Shown: positions 7,563-25,901 of the stretch, piece after piece
How positions within the stretch are numbered: position 1 is the stretch's first letter
How the letters are laid out: each line of letters starts with the position of its first letter
Virus record (IMG/VR): IMGVR_UViG_3300045988_093404
Span: 1-38,131 of that record
DNA from: a virus
Strand: one strand, 5' to 3'
DNA length: 38,131 nucleotides
Notes under the pieces: model-generated
What the model was told of the DNA's origin: nothing
The model's input: only the letters and a program-made list of their open reading frames with translations
Database searches by the model: none
Position numbers and translations under genes: made by a program

Positions 7563-7769
7563 ATGCTCTATGTTTTTGAAATCGCCGAGGGCGATGCAAA
7601 GATTTCCGGCGCGGCTGTGGCAAAGTTTGAGACAGAAAACGAAGCTGTTGCGTCTTTTCACTCGCGCCTCTCTACGGCCATGAAGTCCGAACTGTATACA
7701 GGTGATATGTGCATGGTAATCACGGAAGAGGGCGCTGTGCTGCGGAGAGAAAAATTCACTCGTGCTTGA
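7563..7769 (+). CDS. Hypothetical protein (68 aa)
   Basis: RBS AGGAGGAA upstream. Located between the portal and head-morphogenesis genes. Confidence 0.6.
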   Translation: MLYVFEIAEGDAKISGAAVAKFETENEAVASFHSRLSTAMKSELYTGDMCMVITEEGAVLRREKFTRA

Positions 7770-8949
7770 CCCGGAATATATCCTGAGAGTTTCGGAGGGC
7801 GCGGAGGACATAGCCGAACAGCTCCACAATGTCATTATCCGCGAGATTGTGGAGCGTATCATGATTCGTTTGGGGCGTGGGGATGATTACATTCTCACGC
7901 CCCGCGATAAGTGGCAGCTGGAAGTATTGCAGGATGCCGGGTATATCTTGACAGACTTGCAAGCGGAGATAGCCAAAAAGACAAAGTTGCAGCGCTCCGA
8001 GGTCAAGGCAGCGTTTGAGGATGCGGACATAAAGAGCCGCGCCTTTGACGATGCAATTTATCAACAGGCCGGACTTCCAAAGTCCAGACGATCACCGGCT
8101 ATGGTTCGGACGATGGCACGGATGTATGAGGCCACATTGGGCGAATGGTCGAATTACTGCCGAACCACGGCAGAGGCCGCACAGCAGCTCTTTATCAGAG
8201 AGTGCGACAAAGCGTACAGCCTTGTTGTGTCGGGCGCTATGGGCTATACAGAGGCCGTTAAAAGGGCTGTGGAGACGATAGCGGGAGACGGGGTGAGGAT
8301 TACATACCCGTCCGGCAAAACCGACAGCATCGAGACGGCAACGCTTCGCTGCGTAAGGACAGGAGTCAGTCAGACCGCCGCACAGATCACATTACAGAGA
8401 GCGCAGGAAAACGGCGTGGAGCTGGTGGTTACTTCCTCACACTTGGGAGCGAGACCAGAGCATGAGCCGTGGCAGGGAAAAGTATTCCATGTTGATTTCG
8501 GTGGCAAGCCCGGAGACGGGAAGTATCCCGACTTTGTGGAATCGACCCGGTACGGCTTTGTAGATGGCCTGTGTGGTGCAAACTGCCGCCATTCTTTTTA
8601 CCCATATATCGAGGGCGTATCCCATAACCCGTTTGAGCAGTTCGACAGCGAGGAAAACCGAAGGCGGTACGAAGCCGAACAGAAGCAACGGCGTATGGAA
8701 AACGCAATACGAAAAAGCAAGCGAAAATGTGAGGGCTTGAAAACTGCCGTTGACAATGCGGACGATGCTACACGCCCAGCGTTGCAGGAATCATACGGGA
8801 AAGCAGCCGCAAAGCTCCGAGCGCAGAACGCGGAATACAGACAGTTCTGCGAGGAGAACGGCTTAAAGACCCGGCAGGACAGATTGACCATAGCCGGGTG
8901 GAACAGACAACAGGCGCAACAGGCGAGAGCCGCTGCCGATAAATTGTAA
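7762..8949 (+). CDS. Head morphogenesis / minor capsid protein (SPP1 gp7 / Mu F-like, Minor_capsid_2 type)
   Basis: N-terminus MLDPEYILRVSEGAEDIAEQL and the GLCGANCRHSFYPY motif. GTG 7762 overlaps the upstream stop. Confidence 0.75.
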   Translation: MLDPEYILRVSEGAEDIAEQLHNVIIREIVERIMIRLGRGDDYILTPRDKWQLEVLQDAGYILTDLQAEIAKKTKLQRSEVKAAFEDADIKSRAFDDAIYQQAGLPKSRRSPAMVRTMARMYEATLGEWSNYCRTTAEAAQQLFIRECDKAYSLVVSGAMGYTEAVKRAVETIAGDGVRITYPSGKTDSIETATLRCVRTGVSQTAAQITLQRAQENGVELVVTSSHLGARPEHEPWQGKVFHVDFGGKPGDGKYPDFVESTRYGFVDGLCGANCRHSFYPYIEGVSHNPFEQFDSEENRRRYEAEQKQRRMENAIRKSKRKCEGLKTAVDNADDATRPALQESYGKAAAKLRAQNAEYRQFCEENGLKTRQDRLTIAGWNRQQAQQARAAADKL

Positions 8950-9026
8950 ACTACCCTGCCCGGGTTTACAGGGCTTAATCCATTACCGCCGCCGGGCGGT
9001 TAATAAATACGGTTATGGAGGATTTT

Positions 9027-9653
9027 ATGAAGAATATCAACACGATTCTGGAAGAGCTGGGCATTGAAGTCCCAGAGGACAAGGTGACCGAGCTGAACAA
9101 GGCAGTTGCCGAGAACTACAAGACCACGGCTGAATTTGATAAGAAGGTTGCCAAGGTCGAAGCAGAGCGCGACAACTGGAAGGAACAGGCCGAGACCGCA
9201 GCGGAAACGCTCAAGGGCTTTGACGGCGTGGATGTGAACAAGCTGAATGCCGACATTGCCGAGTGGAAAACCAAAGCGGAGAACGCCGAGAAGGACTATC
9301 AGAAGAAGATTGCTGACCGTGATTTTGAGGACGCTTTGAAAGCGGAGATGGAGGGCTACAAGTTTTCTTCCGCTTCTGCAAAGAATGCCGTCATGTCTGA
9401 AATCCGGGCTAAGGGTCTGAAATACTCTGATGGTAAAATCCTCGGTCTGAGTGATGCTATCTCGCAGATCAAGGAAAAAGACGCGGATGCCTTTGTGGAT
9501 GAAGAAAACCCGCCCGCTAAGTTTACCTCTCGCAAGAGTGCGGAGGGCGGCGGCAAGGTCTATTCGTCTAAGGCAGAAATCATGAAAATCAAAGATGCGA
9601 CAGAGCGACAGGCCGCTATTGCCGCGAACATGAATCTTTTTGGAGGGAATTAA
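9027..9653 (+). CDS. Scaffolding protein (GP20-like)
   Basis: Acidic coiled-coil protein directly before the capsid gene. GGAGG 9017-9021 favours ATG 9027 over 9015. Confidence 0.75.
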   Translation: MKNINTILEELGIEVPEDKVTELNKAVAENYKTTAEFDKKVAKVEAERDNWKEQAETAAETLKGFDGVDVNKLNADIAEWKTKAENAEKDYQKKIADRDFEDALKAEMEGYKFSSASAKNAVMSEIRAKGLKYSDGKILGLSDAISQIKEKDADAFVDEENPPAKFTSRKSAEGGGKVYSSKAEIMKIKDATERQAAIAANMNLFGGN

Positions 9654-18519: not shown

Positions 18520-19885
18520 AAGCCTCGGCGGCGATGACCTCCTCATTGTGCAGCAGGGGGGTGTGTCAAAAAAGGCGAACGCCTCTACTGTGCTTCCGGG
18601 AGCCGGTACAATCACAATTCGGCAGGGTACGGCTATAAAAGGCTCTTTTTCCACCAACGAAAAGGAAAACAAGGTCATCACTCTTGATGCTACAACTAAC
18701 TTCAATGCGCTCACGAATCGCCCGAAATACAAGGGTACTATGATGACAAGCAGCACAGACATTGAACCTGCTTACGCATTTTCCGTTAAGGACTACGGAG
18801 CGGTAGGAGACGGAACCACAGACGATACAACGGCTATTCAGTCGGCCTTTAATGCAGCCTATGCCGCAGATGGGACAGTATATTTCCCCGCTGGTCGGTA
18901 TCGCATTACCTCTCCCGTCTCTCTTACCGGGAACGCCCACAAAATAGCTATCAAGGGTGAAAGCTCTGCAACCTCCGAAATCTTTTACGATGGCAATAAC
19001 TCTATTGCGCTCCAGCTCCAGTCAAGCACAATGGCATACGGCAGAACAATATCTGACCTCGCTATCGTGTGCAGCGGGAATAACGCTGCCGGTCTTTATC
19101 TTATGGGGCAGGGGCAGTGCAGCCTGTCAAACCTTTTTGTTTATAACAGCGCAAATGGCGGCGTGGGCATTTATCTTTACAGTTCCTCTCAGGTGTTCAT
19201 GACAAATGTTCAGGTGCAGGGGTTTGGCAAGGGGCTTTCCGTCAATGGTGGAGACGAATACGGAGATGTTTACCTCACAAACTGCCGCTTTGACGGAAAC
19301 TCATCTGTTGGCGTTGAGATAGTGGATGCACAGGGGATTTTTGCAAACAATGTAACTTGCTACGAAAACCGACAGGCATTGACTATAAGCGGCACGAAAA
19401 ATTCCTTGTTTACAAACTGCGTGTTCGACTCCTCAAAGTTGGAAAATGCAACGATCTCAGATTCCGAACGGCTCAAATTTTCATGTTGCTGGTTTTCTGA
19501 CAACATTACATTTATGGTCGGTAACGGCAGTAACAATGTTTCCATGAGCTATGTCAATCGCTCCGAGTTCAACGGTTGCTCTGTCAACCGAGGAGCAAAG
19601 CAGGGAATTTATGCAGAGGGTTGCAGCGGCCTCCTCGTGAACGGTTGCCGGTTTGAGGATAATGATTATGTGATGTCCTATGTACCGGCGCTTCGTTTTG
19701 CATATTCTGACCATTGCATGGCCACAGCAAACCAGTTTTCAAACCCTGACGGAAAACAGCAGATTTGCATTGGCACATACGAAGCAGACTACATTGTAAT
19801 CACAGGAAATGACCTGTCCTCTGCTGCTATCCCGCTTGATGTAAATGTCGTAAATTTCGTTGTTGAAAGCAACCTTGGAGGCTAA
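18485..19885 (+). CDS. Tail spike / receptor-binding protein with a pectate-lyase-type right-handed beta-helix
   Basis: N-terminus IDQLPQAESLGGDDLLIVQQGG (fibre anchor). VKDYGAVGDGTTDDTTAIQSAFNAA...VYFPAGRYRI is the pectate_lyase_3 signature. Strong RBS AAGGAGGT. Confidence 0.8.
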   Translation: MDRRIDQLPQAESLGGDDLLIVQQGGVSKKANASTVLPGAGTITIRQGTAIKGSFSTNEKENKVITLDATTNFNALTNRPKYKGTMMTSSTDIEPAYAFSVKDYGAVGDGTTDDTTAIQSAFNAAYAADGTVYFPAGRYRITSPVSLTGNAHKIAIKGESSATSEIFYDGNNSIALQLQSSTMAYGRTISDLAIVCSGNNAAGLYLMGQGQCSLSNLFVYNSANGGVGIYLYSSSQVFMTNVQVQGFGKGLSVNGGDEYGDVYLTNCRFDGNSSVGVEIVDAQGIFANNVTCYENRQALTISGTKNSLFTNCVFDSSKLENATISDSERLKFSCCWFSDNITFMVGNGSNNVSMSYVNRSEFNGCSVNRGAKQGIYAEGCSGLLVNGCRFEDNDYVMSYVPALRFAYSDHCMATANQFSNPDGKQQICIGTYEADYIVITGNDLSSAAIPLDVNVVNFVVESNLGG

Positions 19886-19886
19886 A

Positions 19887-20678
19887 ATGAGTAAAATCAC
19901 AGAAGCAATCGAAGTGGCCAAACGCTGGGCAGCCGACCCGGCTCACGGCTACGACCAGACGCACAGATGGGGGCCGGATTACGACTGCTCCTCTTTCCTC
20001 ATCTCCGTTTGGGAAGAAGTCGGCGTACCAGTTAAAAGTCTCGGAGCAAGCTGGACGGGCAACATGAGAGGCGCTTTCATCCGTGCCGGGTTTGTCGATG
20101 TTACCGCCTCCTGCGAGCTGAATATGGGCGCAGGACTGGAAGCGGGTGACATCCTGCTGAACGAGAGCTATCACACGGAGATGTACCTCGGAGACGGAAC
20201 ACTGGTCGGAGCATCTTCCAACGAGTTCGGCGGCATCACAGGCGGTCAGCCGGGTGATCAGACCGGGAACGAAATCCGGGTGCGGCCTTGGTATCGCTAT
20301 TCTCGCGGCTGGGACTGCGTTCTGAGATACGCGGGAGAGCAGGAGGTCGATGTTACGCCTCTGCCGTTTGACGAGCCTGCCACGCCTCCCGATCCGCTTG
20401 TGACCGACACAAATGTCGGCGGCAACACCTATGTCATCAAGCAGGGTGATAGCTGGTGGCGAATCGCTGACCAGCAGCTTGGGGACGGGCTTCTGTGGGA
20501 GCAGCTCATGAAGCTGAACGGATACACAAGCCCCGATGAGCCTATCTACCCCGGAATGGCTATTAGGCTGTGGGATGACGGCTGTGAATCCTGCACGCTG
20601 GAGAGCGACAGCACCCGACAGTTGAAAGAATACCTTGAGGCCGAGGTAAAGAAACTCGGCGGCAAAATCATTTGGTGA
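19887..20678 (+). CDS. Endolysin: cysteine peptidoglycan hydrolase (Amidase_5 / NlpC-P60-like) with a C-terminal LysM domain
   Basis: GYDQTHRWGPDYDCSSF ... HTEMYLG (Cys/His pair). YVIKQGDSWWRIADQ...LNG...IYPGMAIRL is LysM. ATG 19887 after GGAGG. Confidence 0.8.
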   Translation: MSKITEAIEVAKRWAADPAHGYDQTHRWGPDYDCSSFLISVWEEVGVPVKSLGASWTGNMRGAFIRAGFVDVTASCELNMGAGLEAGDILLNESYHTEMYLGDGTLVGASSNEFGGITGGQPGDQTGNEIRVRPWYRYSRGWDCVLRYAGEQEVDVTPLPFDEPATPPDPLVTDTNVGGNTYVIKQGDSWWRIADQQLGDGLLWEQLMKLNGYTSPDEPIYPGMAIRLWDDGCESCTLESDSTRQLKEYLEAEVKKLGGKIIW

Positions 20679-20694: not shown

Positions 20695-21117
20695 ATGAGT
20701 GTGAAAGATATGTGGGATACCATCCGCGTTTTTGCCGCTGTGGTCGGCGGCTTTTTATCTCAGTTTCTGGGAGGGTTTGACGGAATGGTCATGGCTCTGA
20801 TTTGGTTTGCCGTGATTGACTATATCACGGGAATCATTGCCGCTATCATCGAGAAGAAACTAGACAGCTCCATCGGCTGGAAAGGTATCCTCAAAAAGGC
20901 CGTAATGTTTATGATCGTTGGCATCTGCCATATTGTGGACGCGGATGTACTGGGCGGCGGTTCTGCGCTGCGGACGATGGCGATTATTTTCTACATCAGT
21001 AACGAAGGGATTTCCGTGGTCGAGAATGTCAGCCGAGCCGGACTTCCTGTGCCGAACAAATTGAAAGAGGTTCTCGCCCAGCTCAAAGAGGATAGCGAAA
21101 AAGATTCCACCCTTTAA
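20695..21117 (+). CDS. Holin (Phage_holin_4_1 / TcdE-like family)
   Basis: IDYITGIIAAIIEKKLDSSIGWKGILKKAVMFMIV plus three hydrophobic helices. Adjacent to the endolysin. Confidence 0.85.
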   Translation: MSVKDMWDTIRVFAAVVGGFLSQFLGGFDGMVMALIWFAVIDYITGIIAAIIEKKLDSSIGWKGILKKAVMFMIVGICHIVDADVLGGGSALRTMAIIFYISNEGISVVENVSRAGLPVPNKLKEVLAQLKEDSEKDSTL

Positions 21118-21157
21118 TTTTTCATCGTTTGTCCGATGATCCGAAGGGGGTGTGTCT

Positions 21158-21352
21158 ATGCCTAAGTATAGATATACCACAGCGGAATTGCAGTCTATGT
21201 GTAACAATCCGTGGCTCACTGACCGAGAGCGGATAACCTTCGAGCTATATCACAGGCGAGGATGGGCTATAGAGGATGTTGCAGCCGAACTGGATGTTTC
21301 CAGACGGACGGTTGATAATATCCTTCGGTCAATCCGCGACAAATCCATATAA
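21158..21352 (+). CDS. Sigma-70 region-4-only / LuxR-type HTH protein (64 aa)
   Basis: LTDRERITFELYHRRGWAIEDVAAELDVSRRTVDNILRSIRDK. ATG 21158 after GAAGGGGG. Confidence 0.7.
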   Translation: MPKYRYTTAELQSMCNNPWLTDRERITFELYHRRGWAIEDVAAELDVSRRTVDNILRSIRDKSI

Positions 21353-21363
21353 TGCATTAAATT

Positions 21364-21409
21364 TGCTCTCCATTTGCGTATGTTCTGCGCAGGTGGAGAG
21401 CATTTTTTT
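21364..21409 (+). terminator. Rho-independent terminator ending the late operon
   Basis: Perfect 9-bp stem TGCTCTCCA/TGGAGAGCA, 21-nt loop, T7 tract 21403-21409. Confidence 0.7.
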
Positions 21410-21417
21410 GTTATAAT
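21409..21417 (+). promoter_or_regulatory. Extended -10 promoter TGTTATAAT for the accessory operon
   Basis: TGnTATAAT read at 21409-21417. No good -35. First ORF starts 25 nt downstream. Confidence 0.5.
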
Positions 21418-21441
21418 CTGGGCAGAAAGTGAGTGGTACAG

Positions 21442-21816
21442 ATGTGGATAAACTATAATCCAAACCCAGAACACGCGAGAGTAGGAGATTGCGCTATCCG
21501 GGCTGTTGCGAAAGCCACAGATACCGACTGGGAACACGCCTTTGCAGGTCTGTCCGTGATGGGCTATATGATGGGAGATCTCCCCTCAGCAAATCATGTA
21601 TGGGGAGCGTACCTCAAACGGCACGGCTACAAAAGAGAAATTATACCGAACTCCTGCCCAGATTGCTACACGGTGGCAGACTTCTGCCGGGAACATCCGC
21701 AGGGGAAATATGTCCTTGCGTTATCCGGCCATACGGTAGCGGTTGAGGGCGGGAATTGGTTTGATTCATGGGACAGCGGAGCGGAAGTGCCGCTGTACTA
21801 CTACAAGGAGGAATGA
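21442..21816 (+). CDS. Small Cys/His hydrolase-like protein (papain-fold signature), unknown function
   Basis: VGDCAIRAVAKA ... SGHTVAVEGGNWFDSWDSG. Order Cys...His...Asp as in small amidases/peptidases. No family assigned. Confidence 0.45.
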   Translation: MWINYNPNPEHARVGDCAIRAVAKATDTDWEHAFAGLSVMGYMMGDLPSANHVWGAYLKRHGYKREIIPNSCPDCYTVADFCREHPQGKYVLALSGHTVAVEGGNWFDSWDSGAEVPLYYYKEE

Positions 21817-21818
21817 TA

Positions 21819-22193
21819 ATGGCATACGGGAATTACAGCTATAACCCCTATATGAATCCATACGCAAGCCCGTACAGCGTACAGCAGCAGATGCCTACCC
21901 AAATTCCGCAGAGCGTCCAGCAGCCTCAGAATGGCTTTGTGTGGGTCGATGGAATAGACGAGGCGAATGCCTTTTATGTTGCCCCCAATAACGCGGTGCA
22001 GCTGTGGGATAAAAACTCACCCACGATCTACAAAAAGTCAGCAGACAGCACAGGCAGACCCACAATGCAGATTTTCGACCTTGTAGAAAGACAGCCCGTG
22101 CCTAAAGCCGCAGAAAATCCCGATTTTGTGCTACGGTCTGAATTTGAGGAGCTGAAAGCCCGGATTGAAAAGATGGAGGGCAATAATGAGTAA
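21819..22193 (+). CDS. Hypothetical protein with Q/P/Y-rich N-terminus (124 aa)
   Basis: ATG 21819 after AAGGAGG. Low-complexity YNPYMNPYASPYSVQQQMPTQIPQSVQQPQ followed by a globular part. Confidence 0.6.
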   Translation: MAYGNYSYNPYMNPYASPYSVQQQMPTQIPQSVQQPQNGFVWVDGIDEANAFYVAPNNAVQLWDKNSPTIYKKSADSTGRPTMQIFDLVERQPVPKAAENPDFVLRSEFEELKARIEKMEGNNE

Positions 22194-22392
22194 TCCTTTT
22201 TACACCCAAGACAACCCGATGCAGGGATTTGTGGATTTCATGCAGTCCATGAGGGGGAAAGACCCTAACAAGATTCTGAATGACCTTGTAATGAGCGGAA
22301 AAGTCAGCCAACAGCAGCTTAATATAGCCCAGCAGAGGGCAAAGCAGATGAGCGGAGCCTTTGAAAGTTTCCGATCTATGTTTGGATTCTGA
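22186..22392 (+). CDS. Hypothetical helical protein (68 aa)
   Basis: ATG 22186 after GGAGGG. Overlaps the upstream stop by 8 nt. Confidence 0.55.
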   Translation: MSNPFYTQDNPMQGFVDFMQSMRGKDPNKILNDLVMSGKVSQQQLNIAQQRAKQMSGAFESFRSMFGF

Positions 22393-22443
22393 CCGTGGTG
22401 CACAACGGTTTAGATATATTTTTAAGAAAGGGGACGATGAAAA

Positions 22444-23199
22444 ATGTCTCTTAATACCGAGGGTCTTTCTGCCGCTGATATTGCGGCTGTGACCGGGAAC
22501 AACAATTCCGCATGGGGCGGCGATTTCGGGAGCTGGATTATCCTGTTTCTGATTTTCGGCCTTTTTGGCGGCTGGGGTGGCCGTGGCTTCGGCGGCTCTG
22601 CGGGCGCGGCTGAAAACTATGTCCTTGCCTCTGACTTCTCTCAGCTCTCCCGTCAGATTGACAGCGGCTTTGCCGGAGTTGAGCGCAGGACGGACAGCAT
22701 CATCAACGGCCTGTGCGATGGATTCTACACGCAGGCGCAGCTTATCAACGGAACTAACACAGCTATCATGCAGGGCAACAACGCTATTTCCGCCCAGCTT
22801 GCGCAGTGCTGCTGTGATATCCGCGAGGGCATTTCCGGCGTGAACTACAACATGGCTATGAACGCCAACGCCACCCAGCGAGCTATTGAGAACGGCTTTG
22901 CGCAGACCAACTATAACATGGCTACGCAGAACTGCGCTACCCTGACCGCCATTGACAAGGTGGGAGATCGTGTTATTGACTATCTCGCCAATAAGGAAAT
23001 GGCCGCTCTCCAGCGTGAGAATGATTCCCTCCGTCTGGCCGCCTCTCAGGCCAAGCAGAACGAATATCTTGTGTCTCAGCTCGGCTATCAGTGTCCTAAA
23101 CCCGCATATGTTGTGCAGCCCCCTCAGCAGGTGACTTTCCCGACCAACTGCGGCGGCGTGGCCAGTTATGGCAACTTCGGCGGCTGCGGCTGCGGTTAA
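22444..23199 (+). CDS. Membrane-anchored coiled-coil, Cys-containing protein (251 aa)
   Basis: One hydrophobic, Gly-rich helix WIILFLIFGLFGGWGG. Motifs QCCCDI and GLCDGFY. C-terminus NCGGVASYGNFGGCGCG. Confidence 0.6.
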   Translation: MSLNTEGLSAADIAAVTGNNNSAWGGDFGSWIILFLIFGLFGGWGGRGFGGSAGAAENYVLASDFSQLSRQIDSGFAGVERRTDSIINGLCDGFYTQAQLINGTNTAIMQGNNAISAQLAQCCCDIREGISGVNYNMAMNANATQRAIENGFAQTNYNMATQNCATLTAIDKVGDRVIDYLANKEMAALQRENDSLRLAASQAKQNEYLVSQLGYQCPKPAYVVQPPQQVTFPTNCGGVASYGNFGGCGCG

Positions 23200-23210
23200 G
23201 GCGGTGAAAC

Positions 23211-23657
23211 ATGGCTGTTGAACTTACTGCTGTTCTGCCGCAGACCGTAGCATATGGGCAGAGTGTGCTTTTTACCGAAACGCCTGTCAGGTGTAACAAG
23301 GGCTATGTAGTTCACAGGGACGGAGCGGGCATCGTAACGCTGCGAGGTATCACAAACGGGAATTGCTTTGCCCGGTATCAGGTGAGCTTCGGCGGGAATA
23401 TCGCAATCGCCACGGGCGCTGTTGTGCCGATCAGCGTAGCACTTTCTATTGACGGAGAGGCTTTGCCGTCCACTACAATGACGGTAACGCCCGCAGCCGT
23501 TGGAGATTTTTTCAATGTTTCTAACACCACTTTTGTGGATGTTCCGCGTGGTTGCTGCGTTACGATTTCCGTCGAAAATGTAAGCGTTACCGATGCAGGT
23601 GCAACAATTCCTGTTGATGTGGCAAACGCAAATCTTATCATTGAGCGCGTAGCGTAA
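23211..23657 (+). CDS. Stand-alone BclA C-terminal-like (C1q/TNF-like jelly-roll) protein
   Basis: All-beta 148 aa ending NLIIERVA, as I recall the exosporium BclA C-terminus (IIIEKVA). Pattern Q.V..G..V.F...G.Y.V.F...IDGE.LP. Confidence 0.5.
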   Translation: MAVELTAVLPQTVAYGQSVLFTETPVRCNKGYVVHRDGAGIVTLRGITNGNCFARYQVSFGGNIAIATGAVVPISVALSIDGEALPSTTMTVTPAAVGDFFNVSNTTFVDVPRGCCVTISVENVSVTDAGATIPVDVANANLIIERVA

Positions 23658-23670
23658 AGGAGGTGAGCGC

Positions 23671-24033
23671 ATGGACGAATTAACAGGGCTGAAATATATG
23701 CTCATGGACGAACTGAAAGAGCTTGCCAAAGGCGGCAAGCTGAATGCCGGTGATGTGGATGTAATCTATAAGCTGGTCTGCGCTACAAATGGCCTTGATC
23801 AGATGGAGATGGGCGAGAGTCACAACAGCTACCGCCGCGACAGCAGAGGCAGATACTCCCGCCGTGACGGAGGATACAGCCGTGAGGACGGCTATTCCGG
23901 CAACCGCTACAGTATGGACTATTCCCGCGCTGGCGATGACATGGCAAACCGTCTCCGCTCCCTCATGGGTGAGGCTGAAACCGAGGAAGAGCGCAGAGCC
24001 ATTAAAAAGGCCATTGAAATGATGGAACGGTAA
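23671..24033 (+). CDS. Hypothetical protein with an RD/RY/SG-rich centre (120 aa)
   Basis: Strong RBS AAGGAGGTG. SYRRDSRGRYSRRDGGYSREDGYSGNRYS flanked by helices. Confidence 0.6.
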   Translation: MDELTGLKYMLMDELKELAKGGKLNAGDVDVIYKLVCATNGLDQMEMGESHNSYRRDSRGRYSRRDGGYSREDGYSGNRYSMDYSRAGDDMANRLRSLMGEAETEEERRAIKKAIEMMER

Positions 24034-24244
24034 GGGGGCGGTTGCCCTGATTACCGAAAGGGATATTCTTGAAGCAATTGAAGAGTGCCAAGCCACGCCA
24101 AACCCCAACGCGAACACCTGCATACGCCTCGCGGCTTTTTATACGATCCTCGACCACCTACACGCGGATAGCGTAGACAGACAAAGCTATTCCTATTCCA
24201 CCGGGGAATTTACGGAGCAGACTGCGGATGAATGGGTCGATAGG

Positions 24245-24508
24245 ATGGATAATACCGATGGAACGATGGGTGCGCACTGGAACAAGCAGCAGGTACAGAG
24301 CATCATGCGGCAGCGGAACAGCACACTACCCGTTGCAGATATGTATGCCGTCATCAACAGCCTTTACAGCGACTATTACAAGGTCGCAAGAAAGCACGGA
24401 GTAAACACGCTTGAATTTTTCTATGATCTTGCTGATGCATGGCTAAAGGACGATGACGCAGTATCTGACAAGGCACAAGCATACTTTGAGAACATTGTAA
24501 AGCACTAA
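24245..24508 (+). CDS. Hypothetical protein. This is the minimal ATG-initiated version; the frame is open from 24023 (see finding).
   Basis: First canonical start is ATG 24245. The 74 upstream in-frame sense codons read like protein sequence. Confidence 0.55.
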   Translation: MDNTDGTMGAHWNKQQVQSIMRQRNSTLPVADMYAVINSLYSDYYKVARKHGVNTLEFFYDLADAWLKDDDAVSDKAQAYFENIVKH

Positions 24509-24535
24509 GAGCCGGGATTTCCCGGCTCTTTTTTT
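24508..24535 (+). terminator. Rho-independent terminator ending the accessory operon
   Basis: AGAGCCGGG / CCCGGCTCT stem, loop ATTT, T tract to 24535. Confidence 0.85.
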
Positions 24536-24536
24536 G

Positions 24537-24582
24537 TTAGCCATATAACAACCTGCCAATCGGTTACTTGCTATATGGCTAA
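24537..24582. other. Candidate attP for the serine integrase
   Basis: Perfect 11-bp inverted arms TTAGCCATATA (24537-24547) / TATATGGCTAA (24572-24582). About 17/23 symmetry per half-site. The right arm overlaps the integrase stop codon. Confidence 0.5.
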
Positions 24583-25901
24583 ATATTTAATTCCACGCCT
24601 GTAACTGTATCGTTGTCAACATATATTCTCTTTATGAGCCATGACCAAAAGGCTTTTTTCGCCGCCCGAGACATGGATTCGTAGGCAGACAGAGGGTCAA
24701 GTATTTCCTCTATGTCTGGTTCTTCGATGGGCGTTTCCTGCTGACTGAGTAATTGCGTCAGCTCCGCATACTGTGCTTTGTAGGAGTCCATATCTATCAG
24801 CTCATTAATGTAAAGTTCCTGCAATCTTGCAATCTTGCGCTTTATCTCCGGGGTCTTGTCACGGACGGCGGCCTTTTTCTCCTCTCTCGCCGTTATCTCG
24901 CCCTCAAAGATAGATACAATGTTATCGAGTAGGTATTTTTCAATCTGCTTTTCGTTATATTTTCGCGTGAGAGAGCAATTCCCCCACTGTTCGGCAGACT
25001 GACATTTGTAGTAGACATAGCCGTAAACCGGATAGGTTTTCATTCTTCGCCCGCACTCAGCGCAGAATAAAAGCCCTGTAAACAGGTATACCCGGTCTGT
25101 TCTCCCGAACCCGGCGTTTCGTTGAGACCGAACGCTCAATATCTCCTGCGCTGTGCTAAATGTTTTCTCATCAATCAGAGCCGGAGAGAATCCTTTTACA
25201 CCAAACCATGTTCCTGTGTACCGCTCATTGCCGATCAGACAACGAACCATAGTTGTTGATATCTTCATTCCCTTTTCTACAGCTAACCAACGCTGCACCT
25301 CACGGATTGAACGGTTTGCTATGTAATGCTGGAATATCTCCACCGCCAGCGGCGCGGTTTCCGGGTCGATAACAGGCTTTTTGTTTTCGATTTTGTATCC
25401 CAAGGGGACTTTCCCGGAGATTACTTCGCCGTTCTTTATCTTCTCATCAAATACAAACTTTATTCGCTCTGCCGTTCTGTCTGCCTCGTCCTGCGCGATT
25501 GACAACTTGATGTTGAGGCTCAAACGCCCGTTCGCTGTGGTTGTATCGTAGTCCTCCATTATGGCGATCCAGCGCACTTTATGGGCATCAAGTATCTGCT
25601 GCACCTCGTAATAATCCGCGATGTTGCGAAACCACCTATCCAGCTTGATAAAAAGGATAATGTCTATCTCATCCCGCTTTACTGCGTCTATCAGCGAGAC
25701 AAACGCAGGGCGGGATTTCCATTTTTTCCGGGCAGAAAATCCTCCGTCCCGAAATTCCCCAACAATGCGGAGCTTGTTTTCCTTTGCATACTCCACCAGC
25801 CTTTCCCTCTGAGCATCAAGCGATATGCCGAACTTTTCCTGTTCCTCGCTGCTGACGCGGTAGTACAAAGCCGCTCTTTCGCCCGGTTCTACTCTTTTCA
25901 T
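24579..25901 (-). CDS. int: Large serine recombinase (integrase)
   Basis: N-terminus ALYYRVSSEEQ (resolvase catalytic Ser), recombinase domain, Cys cluster CAECG...YYKC, coiled-coil C-terminus. RBS AGGAGG. Confidence 0.9.
   Translation of the reverse strand: MKRVEPGERAALYYRVSSEEQEKFGISLDAQRERLVEYAKENKLRIVGEFRDGGFSARKKWKSRPAFVSLIDAVKRDEIDIILFIKLDRWFRNIADYYEVQQILDAHKVRWIAIMEDYDTTTANGRLSLNIKLSIAQDEADRTAERIKFVFDEKIKNGEVISGKVPLGYKIENKKPVIDPETAPLAVEIFQHYIANRSIREVQRWLAVEKGMKISTTMVRCLIGNERYTGTWFGVKGFSPALIDEKTFSTAQEILSVRSQRNAGFGRTDRVYLFTGLLFCAECGRRMKTYPVYGYVYYKCQSAEQWGNCSLTRKYNEKQIEKYLLDNIVSIFEGEITAREEKKAAVRDKTPEIKRKIARLQELYINELIDMDSYKAQYAELTQLLSQQETPIEEPDIEEILDPLSAYESMSRAAKKAFWSWLIKRIYVDNDTVTGVELNI

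Follow-up and report, generated by a model that had tools for sequence, protein, structure and literature searches.

What is an insulated block of seven small genes for, when it lies between the lysis genes and the serine recombinase gene of a virus and recurs in phages with unrelated backbones? The question is raised by IMG/VR record IMGVR_UViG_3300045988_093404, whose whole 38,131-nucleotide length was analyzed and is referred to here as the window. The window looks like a complete siphovirus of 38 kb and of Clostridia type. An initial annotation had described positions 21,364 to 24,535 as a self-contained accessory operon of eight open reading frames (ORFs) in the position typical of morons, and proposed that it acts in lysogenic conversion by building or decorating a cell- or spore-surface layer. 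We recovered the terminators, the extended -10 promoter and the plus-strand ORFs at the positions given for them (Table 1), although the number of ORFs is seven, which is also how many had actually been listed. Our data show that these genes, termed p1 to p7 according to their order, form a multi-gene moron that is widespread among gut Bacillota phages, moves horizontally, and is insulated in its transcription; Bacteroidota phages have a reduced form of it.

The co-occurrence of the seven genes was examined by profile searches of 151 loci, comprising 60 genome loci collected with p5 as the seed, 80 viral loci collected with p4, and GenBank phages. Among these loci, p4 was present in 146, p5 in 139, p2 in 133, p6 in 109, p1 in 108, p3 in 101, and p7 in 73. 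Cassette genes were always found on one strand and in the same order. The order 1234567 was the commonest (at least 57 loci), and a minimal form consisting of p2, p4, and p5 ("245") occurred in at least 20 loci. Hence, the genes travel together independently of the phage backbone, the point on which the initial annotation had suggested co-occurrence analysis. Given that this seven-gene order is fixed across dozens of unrelated phage backbones, we consider that the cassette serves a single selected function, probably as a physical complex. Some loci carry additional genes within this order. A C5 DNA methyltransferase gene is inserted between p4 and p5 in a group of Lachnospiraceae prophages (locus L038, 6819-7934), and an HNH-like ORF is inserted between p3 and p4 in Clostridium perfringens phage CPD1 (locus L157, 5065-5688). 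In many loci (e.g., L124, L126, L111, and L048), a further small ORF ("MYERLLALGFTEQMA...", ~60-70 amino acids [aa]) precedes p1 on the cassette side of the terminator/promoter junction; it would count as an eighth cassette gene, one that the window lacks.

The genomic sites occupied by the cassette are diverse. Twenty-four loci have it inserted between a minor-head gene and a scaffold gene, with both flanks identified in 16 of them, and these loci belong to phages whose major capsid protein (MCP) is 53-72% identical to that of the window. In the window itself, the minor-head gene (7762-8949) and the scaffold gene (9015-9650) are adjacent, and the cassette instead follows the holin gene; it therefore separates genes that are neighbors in related phages, as a moron does. 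In 25 loci, the cassette is located just upstream of a serine recombinase gene. Scans of the flanks with PHROG profiles revealed integrases downstream in roughly one-quarter to one-third of the loci, and minor head proteins, holins, endolysins, regulators, and many HNH endonucleases upstream. The frequent neighboring HNH endonucleases may relate to the mobility of the cassette. The cassette directly follows holin or endolysin genes in the window, Dulem virus 33, bajarodcaudo virus 5, Ceridwen, and Vescimonas; in Bacteroides phage C3_41T2LP, Dulem virus 39, and CPD1, it occupies early or recombination regions; and in Vescimonas fastidiosa it is found at the very end of the prophage. A scan for relatives of the window's serine recombinase yielded only two loci, too few to gauge how frequently the junction is empty.

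The cassette is also insulated from the transcription of its neighbors. In the window, the upstream hairpin (21,364-21,402) has 17 pairs followed by a T-run and a folding energy of -28.7 kcal/mol (z = -8.0), which none of 200 shuffled sequences equaled, and the downstream hairpin (24,507-24,530, also followed by a T-run) reaches -19.1 kcal/mol (z = -4.9). The element TGTTATAAT abuts the T-tract of the upstream terminator, so that the hairpin stands where a -35 element would be expected, and no separate -35 is present. Perfect matches to TGNTATAAT occur three times on both strands of the 38-kb window, against 0.76 expected, and TGTTATAAT is one of them. Across the family, a terminator-like hairpin lies within 250 nucleotides upstream of the first cassette gene in 73 of 124 nonredundant loci, compared to 48 of 400 control genes (12%), and downstream of the cassette in 61 of 118 loci. 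The junction of a T-tract with TG-n-TAnnAT seen in the window recurs in the loci of many other phages and is enriched upstream of the cassette (19 of 69 cassette T-runs vs 99 of 1,183 control T-runs; Fisher p = 7e-6). Insulation by flanking terminators is thus a property of the cassette family and, together with the alternative genomic sites, bears out the description of the block as an insulated, self-contained accessory unit in a moron position. Another perfect extended -10 element (TGCTATAAT) is found at 27,477-27,485 of the window, followed ~25 nucleotides on by a 13-bp hairpin with a T-run (27,510-27,545), and this arrangement could specify a very short transcript in the lysogeny-switch region.

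Phage morons, defined for lambdoid and HK97-type phages, are autonomous insertions consisting of a promoter, a gene, and a terminator. Like them, the cassette separates genes that lie side by side in relatives, is flanked by terminators, has a host-type -10 element ahead of it, is dispensable, and resides at classic hot spots (after lysis genes and before the integrase gene, or between head genes). Unlike them, it consists of seven co-linear genes rather than one or two and is also found in virulent phages. Moreover, its base composition matches that of the phage, with a GC content of 0.50-0.55 in the block vs 0.47-0.55 elsewhere. The terminator/-10 arrangement is that of a moron, and the distinct base composition of morons is lacking.

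The hosts of the loci are mainly Clostridia, many of them Lachnospiraceae or Oscillospiraceae. Butyrivibrio phage Ceridwen carries the full cassette; its authors, who saw lytic growth only, consider it virulent (PMC7372960). In CPD1, the cassette is partial (p2, p3-like, p4, and p7N-like genes); this phage and the crAss-like carriers are counted here as virulent or non-temperate. In Bacteroidota hosts, p4 and a gene for DUF7841, a domain that forms the C-terminal part of p7, are adjacent in at least six records of crAss-like phages and are present in a Bacteroides phage as well. The copy in the crAss-like phage cr52_1 belongs to a recoded part of the genome, since p4 and its neighbors have in-frame TAG codons. 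This phage (L004; 166-2697 and 2787-6676) reads TAG as a sense codon in many genes, and its DUF7841/p4 block is directly preceded by a diversity-generating retroelement (reverse transcriptase and target tail protein). Conversely, the isolated Flavonifractor phage Chenonceau, whose MCP is 58.5% identical to the window's, carries none of the seven genes and has other cargo at its minor-head/scaffold hot spot. Since this related phage lacks the entire set, the cassette is not an essential virion structure. The cassette is essentially restricted to phages, rather than being a plasmid or chromosomal system. Residence on plasmids was considered and set aside, as only two plasmid records match, a prophage on the Vescimonas megaplasmid and a 2.4-kb fragment. 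Similarly, records MT839484 and MT839772 were rejected as complete mini-elements, being unverified linear scaffold fragments that also carry an MCP gene.

Table 1. Positions of the cassette and of the adjoining genes and signals in the window
Feature	Coordinates	Strand	Description
Endolysin	19860-20678		ELLD+LysM; upstream of the block
Holin	20695-21117		Phage_holin_4_1; between the endolysin and sigma-70-region-4/HTH genes
Sigma-70-region-4/HTH protein	21152-21352		66 aa; sigma-70 region 4/helix-turn-helix (HTH) domain only; last gene of the lysis operon, before the cassette terminator
Upstream terminator	21364-21409	+	Rho-independent; closes the late/lysis operon; 17-bp stem, T7 tract
Putative promoter	21409-21417	+	Extended -10 element; directly abuts the terminator T-tract
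p1	21442-21816	+	124 aa; phrog_3754; predicted stand-alone papain-like Cys-His-Asp hydrolase
p2	21819-22193	+	124 aa; phrog_21718; Q/P/Y-rich N-terminus, small conserved domain, C-terminal helix
p3	22186-22392	+	68 aa; phrog_22984; Q-rich, helical by inspection
p4	22444-23199	+	251 aa; phrog_16490
p5	23211-23657	+	148 aa; phrog_20016; predicted stand-alone TNF/C1q-like jelly roll
p6	23671-24033	+	120 aa; weak phrog_28802 match; N-terminal helix, R/D/Y/S-rich low-complexity core, C-terminal helix
p7	24047-24508	+	153 aa; CTG start; N-terminal domain and C-terminal DUF7841
Downstream terminator	24507-24540	+	Rho-independent; closes the cassette; overlaps the p7 stop codon
Serine recombinase	24579-25901	-	Next after the block

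The seven ORFs are in tight register, with good ribosome-binding sites, and an Rfam search of the block found no RNA family. Each of the seven proteins belongs to a PHROG or Pfam family or has hundreds to thousands of homologues; p1 to p6 all fall into PHROGs of unknown function. When p1 to p7 were compared to Pfam, NCBIfam, and PADLOC, the only match was that of p7 to DUF7841. Sequence and profile searches of the PDB with p1, p2, p4, p5, and p7 gave no match, and Pfam scans of the individual members of the p2 and p4 alignments returned only noise (e.g., Baculo_PEP_C, E = 0.013). Every copy of the cassette seen in annotated records is labeled hypothetical, and a full-text literature search found no paper describing it.

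The protein encoded by p4 has more than 7,600 homologous protein clusters and is carried by at least 592 IMG/VR contigs. It begins with a short acidic peptide and a G/N-rich linker, followed by a hydrophobic anchor of ~15 residues, helical repeats bearing a CCC motif, a leucine zipper, and a Pro-rich, Cys/Gly-rich C-terminus. The QCCCDI motif and the GCGCG terminus that had been reported for the block are both in this protein. The number of repeats varies between homologues, and the leucine-zipper segment is conserved. Among 123 unique homologues, CCC is present in all, at least two Cys residues lie within the last 14 residues in 122, and the median number of Cys residues is 11. The acidic peptide that precedes the hydrophobic segment spans ~30 residues without Lys or Arg, and the corresponding flank of the 123 homologues has a median of 0 K/R and 3 D/E. 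The N-termini are of two types: about half read L-S-x-A-D-I-A-A-V-T-G-(N/G), and the others are of the TMPVAP type. No other protein of the block has a hydrophobic anchor, and no N-terminal signal peptide is evident in any of the seven on inspection, a predictor not having been run.

The structure predicted for p5 with AlphaFold2 (AF2) (predicted local distance difference test [pLDDT] 85.7; predicted template modeling [pTM] score 0.81) points to a TNF/C1q jelly roll that is closest to the exosporium proteins BclA (its C-terminal domain, CTD), BxpB, and ExsFA. Foldseek matched it in the PDB to the F-BclA CTD (9h38), BxpB (8d02), ExsFA (7r5i), and BclA (1wck), then to 4-1BBL, EDA, and C1q; the top matches had E values of 1e-7 to 1e-5 and template modeling (TM) scores of ~0.7, and 117 PDB entries matched at E <= 1e-3. 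The initial label of BclA-C-like jelly roll thus stands at the level of the fold. No match was found by sequence in Pfam or NCBIfam (E <= 0.1) or in the PDB. Like BxpB and ExsFA, p5 is a stand-alone domain (~148 aa), and like the exosporium proteins of the Bacillus cereus group (ExsFA/BxpB, the BclA CTD, and F-BclA of F-ENA) it is encoded beside a partner rich in Cys and another whose short N-terminal peptide is conserved. Unlike them, it shows only 15-18% identity and no Pfam match, has no collagen-like stalk (no GXY repeats are visible in its 148 aa), and is phage-borne, including in phages of hosts described as non-sporulating. More than 3,600 clusters of homologous proteins exist; among aligned homologues, C28, C115, and C116 are invariant, and variable positions fall in short discrete stretches. 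The structural neighbors of p5 among viruses are uncharacterized. The gene after p4 in crAss-like, Bacteroides, and bajarodcaudo phages was tried as a p5 homologue and rejected (hhalign probability <2%, no Pfam match); it may be a structural analogue of p5. In CPD1, the place of p5 is held by an unrelated 125-aa protein, CPD1_040 (L157, 6397-6774), which is beta-rich by inspection and matches no Pfam family; its Cys-rich N-terminus (MTCNRRCNCCNRR) recalls the N-terminal connectors of endospore-appendage subunits.

The only enzyme in the set would be p1, which its model suggests is a papain-like Cys-His-Asp hydrolase weakly resembling C39 peptidases. The AF2 model (pLDDT 95) has a minimal papain-like fold, and D16-C17, H97, D108, C72, and C75 are invariant in 48 homologues; with C17, H97, and D108 as candidate catalytic residues, the original proposal of a Cys/His hydrolase gains support. 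The best Foldseek matches, all weak (E 0.08-0.2; TM 0.43-0.48), were the C39 double-glycine peptidase domains of PCAT1, LahT, and ComA, followed by Josephin-2 and Tae4. Like those C39 domains, p1 has a papain-like fold of ~125-150 aa, with the catalytic Cys at the start of the first helix and the His and Asp in C-terminal strands. Unlike them, it does not match the Pfam C39 model, has neither an ABC transporter fusion nor a Gln six residues before the Cys, and does not covary with a GG-type substrate; a PDB profile search found nothing relevant. Homologues of p1 occur without the rest of the cassette in Tsamsa-like Bacillus phages, Geobacillus phage GBK2, and Prevotella Lak megaphages. In Bacillus phage Izhevsk, the p1 homologue (L152, 3968-4363; "putative peptidase") adjoins a Ser/Thr kinase gene and an Ocr-like anti-restriction gene, a context that hints at a host-directed role for p1.

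The remaining proteins are small and of low complexity or helical. The conserved domain of p2 reads WV.GE..A..Y.VAPN..V.LWD....YLK.ADASG.P; p2 found no match in Pfam or the PDB. In p6 homologues, the core contains YSR[DE] repeats. The DUF7841 domain (PF25223) of p7 scores above the gathering threshold (95.3 bits vs a cut-off of 25.2; E = 3.6e-27; residues 49-150), and the N-terminal domain of p7 is also found in the usual seventh gene of the cassette, which encodes ~105 aa. DUF7841 has 1,379 cluster representatives and typically follows a disordered, R/E/Y/G-rich region of 100-200 aa; in cr52_1, gp22 consists of DUF7841 fused to an RDY-rich tail like p6. Because of these fusions and associated regions, we consider p6 and p7 to be functionally linked. 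As the initial annotation had noted, the last ORF has no canonical start: there is no ATG, GTG, or TTG ahead of the DUF7841 domain in its frame. Homologues begin M-[IL]-T-E-[RK]-[DE]-L-L, and their ATG aligns with a CTG at 24,047-24,049, which lies 8 nucleotides 3' of an AAGGGGG Shine-Dalgarno site. Since the sequence is identical in an independent assembly (L070), we attribute this to a CTG start rather than to an assembly error.

Given these properties, what might the cassette do? We tentatively favor a complex that works apart from the virion and is located at the cytoplasmic membrane of the infected cell or lysogen, with superinfection exclusion as its most plausible use, a possibility rather than a probability. 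The cassette encodes no NTPase and one small enzyme, and its products abound in coiled coil and cysteine and include a TNF-like domain and disordered segments rich in Tyr, Arg, and Gln, which looks like a self-assembling complex; the seven products would then constitute one physical assembly and not a pathway. In such an assembly, p4 would be held in the cytoplasmic membrane by its hydrophobic segment, with the acidic N-terminus probably outside and the Cys-rich coiled coil in the cytoplasm, and the soluble partners, namely a TNF-like trimer of p5 and the low-complexity or helical p2, p3, p6, and p7, would dock on it. The p5 trimer would resemble the exosporium anchor ExsFA/BxpB in this setting, and p1 might be a maturation or effector enzyme, one that we regard as loosely attached because it also occurs alone in unrelated phages. 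A complex nucleated at the membrane is favored because only p4 has a membrane-type segment, signal peptides are not evident, and p4 is conserved from monoderm to diderm hosts. Moreover, since p4 is shared by phages that have unrelated virions and infect either Gram-positive or Gram-negative hosts, the target is most likely the cytoplasmic membrane and not the virion or the cell wall.

The initial annotation had left room equally for a role in defense or exclusion. Superinfection exclusion appears the most plausible use because the cassette is restricted to phages, dispensable, and distributed like a moron in temperate and virulent phages. The same features, together with a membrane anchor, are shared by Sie2009, Ltp, T4 Imm and Sp, and HK97 gp15. 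Speculatively, the complex could act as a barrier or modifier at the level of the membrane, for example by excluding the DNA of superinfecting phages; in lysogens, its genes could be transcribed from a host-type promoter of their own, and in virulent phages their expression could be either early or late.

Several points weigh against such a membrane complex. None of the seven proteins is linked to a function by experiment or by homology, and no PADLOC defense model was matched, with only noise-level hits (E >= 0.01) for p4 and p7. Known superinfection-exclusion proteins are single small membrane proteins rather than seven-gene sets; they have no homology to the cassette and no TNF-like or low-complexity partner. 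In bacteria and phages, TNF/C1q-like domains usually bind ligands in an exposed position, either on spore surfaces or at fiber tips; a TNF/C1q-like p5 would thus seem more in keeping with a structure that is released or carried by the virion than with a cytoplasmic one. The topology suggested for p4 derives from charge bias only, and the cassette promoter is putative, being a match to a consensus. Finally, a late structural role would also fit both the cr52_1 block, which sits in the TAG-recoded region beside tail genes, and the 24 loci inside the head gene cluster.

It is also conceivable, if doubtful, that the cassette represents an undescribed class of phage-borne, self-assembling, exosporium-like kit, combining a TNF trimer of the ExsF type with a coiled-coil lattice or anchor rich in Cys and a disordered matrix rich in Tyr, Arg, and Gln. 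If so, such a kit would be mobile among phages of Bacillota and Bacteroidota and would build a cross-linked structure at, or from, the host membrane, serving, for example, as a barrier to superinfection or as a coat or tether for progeny and cell debris.

An optional virion appendage seems unlikely. The coiled coil of p4 would be the stalk and the TNF-like p5 the knob of a head or tail fiber, dispensable and useful for adhesion in the gut, in the manner of the adenovirus fiber and knob, PRD1 P5, or the Sf6 needle knob; p2, p3, p6, and p7 would be adaptors or chaperones and p1 a maturation protease. The fold of p5, the clustering of its variable positions, and the fact that none of the proteins has an evident signal peptide on inspection all agree with a fiber, as do the loci between minor-head and scaffold genes and the crAss-like copies among tail and structural genes of the TAG-recoded genome part. 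Some p4 homologues have also been labeled "spike" or "viral fiber"; these are depositor annotations, which probably derive from coiled-coil similarity only. The same cassette occurs in phages whose virions are unrelated (crAss-like phages vs siphoviruses) and at non-structural sites, namely the prophage end in Vescimonas and the early or recombination regions of C3_41T2LP, Dulem virus 39, and CPD1. Terminators flank it on both sides, it has a promoter-like element of its own, and it is missing from the related phage Chenonceau, and the strongly hydrophobic, membrane-type segment of p4 is likewise at odds with an appendage.

An accessory role in lysis or egress we judge improbable. Here, a membrane-active p4, with a G/W-rich hydrophobic segment like that of a bacteriocin or fusion peptide, would aid the holin and endolysin, for example by setting the timing of lysis or disrupting the membrane, and the other proteins would be regulators. 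The frequent position of the cassette directly 3' of the holin or endolysin gene agrees with such a role, and in cr52_1 the block follows a gene for a protein with a transmembrane segment and a coiled coil that is annotated as LysB/FtsL-like. The architecture of p4 resembles that of a class I fusion protein or of a Rz-type i-spanin: a hydrophobic anchor near the N-terminus precedes a long coiled coil, and cysteines are conserved. Unlike i-spanins, p4 is found mostly in phages of monoderm hosts, shows no sequence similarity to them, and has an acidic N-flank that suggests the opposite topology. Gram-positive hosts have no outer membrane, and no small lipoprotein resembling an o-spanin was noted among the seven cassette ORFs by inspection, which did not include a lipobox scan. 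Furthermore, a terminator separates the lysis genes from the cassette in the window and many other loci, many loci are far from lysis genes, and seven genes would be a large set for this task.

The cell- or spore-surface module of the initial annotation, in which p5 would serve as an ExsFA/BxpB-like anchor, p4 as a Cys-rich lattice, and p6 and p2 as a Tyr/Arg/Gln-rich matrix, is very improbable in the light of the carriers. Butyrivibrio, including Butyrivibrio fibrisolvens, the host of Ceridwen, is not known to sporulate, and Vescimonas fastidiosa is described as non-spore-forming; nonetheless, Ceridwen, regarded as virulent, has the full cassette and the V. fastidiosa prophage carries it too. 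Together with the partial cassette of CPD1 and the occurrence of p4 with DUF7841 in crAss-like and other Bacteroidota phages, this speaks against lysogenic conversion of a surface. A surface layer is also disfavored by the finding that, on inspection, no protein of the block has an evident signal peptide and only p4 a hydrophobic anchor, although spore-coat proteins likewise lack signal peptides. No spore family was matched in Pfam or NCBIfam. In its favor are the closeness of p5 to F-BclA, BxpB, and ExsFA, the cysteines of p4, the YSR[DE] repeats of p6, the position at a prophage end with an autonomous promoter element, and the many Lachnospiraceae or Oscillospiraceae hosts.

The least credible alternative is a bacteriocin-like or otherwise secreted effector, in which the C39-like p1 would trim a double-glycine-type leader off p4 and thereby free or activate a membrane-active, Cys-rich product: the C39 domains of PCAT1, LahT, and ComA are indeed the best structural neighbors of p1, about half of the p4 N-termini match the double-glycine leader consensus LSxxELxxIxGG at positions -12, -11, -8, -7, -4, and -2, and the G/W-rich hydrophobic stretch that follows is like those of class IIb bacteriocins, but the Foldseek matches of p1 are weak (E ~0.1, TM 0.48), p1 also stands alone in unrelated phages, the cassette includes no ABC transporter, and a coiled coil of 250 aa is not a typical bacteriocin. 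Cleavage of such a leader by p1 is made less likely by the fact that the leader-like p4 N-terminus and p1 do not co-occur: p4 of the leader type is found in "245" loci without p1, and many loci with p1 have the TMPVAP type.

The membrane complex that we tentatively favor and its alternatives all concern a cassette whose kind, a phage moron or accessory cassette, is known and whose seven-gene content is without a characterized counterpart. Once identified, its function would annotate thousands of gut-phage genes together and would tell whether gut phages possess a new membrane-level exclusion device, a virion accessory, or an exosporium-like assembly. Cultured carriers include Butyrivibrio phage Ceridwen, C. 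perfringens phage CPD1, the prophage of Vescimonas fastidiosa MM35, and Lachnospiraceae strain JLR.KK009 (CP143549).

The remaining genes of the window follow the order large terminase, portal, minor head protein, scaffold, major head protein, tape measure, tail proteins, and tail spike, the last being of the pectate-lyase type. The sigma-70-region-4/HTH gene that ends the lysis operon has no general linkage to the cassette; the same arrangement is present in the close relative L070, and a weak tblastn match (32% identity) was found in L052. In both the window and L070, the integrase gene adjoins a minus-strand gene (25,955-26,518 in the window) whose 187-aa product has two zinc-ribbon motifs and, at its C-terminal end, a hydrophobic segment. 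In addition, a tRNA-Thr gene with the anticodon TGT is located near the left end of the phage (916-991).

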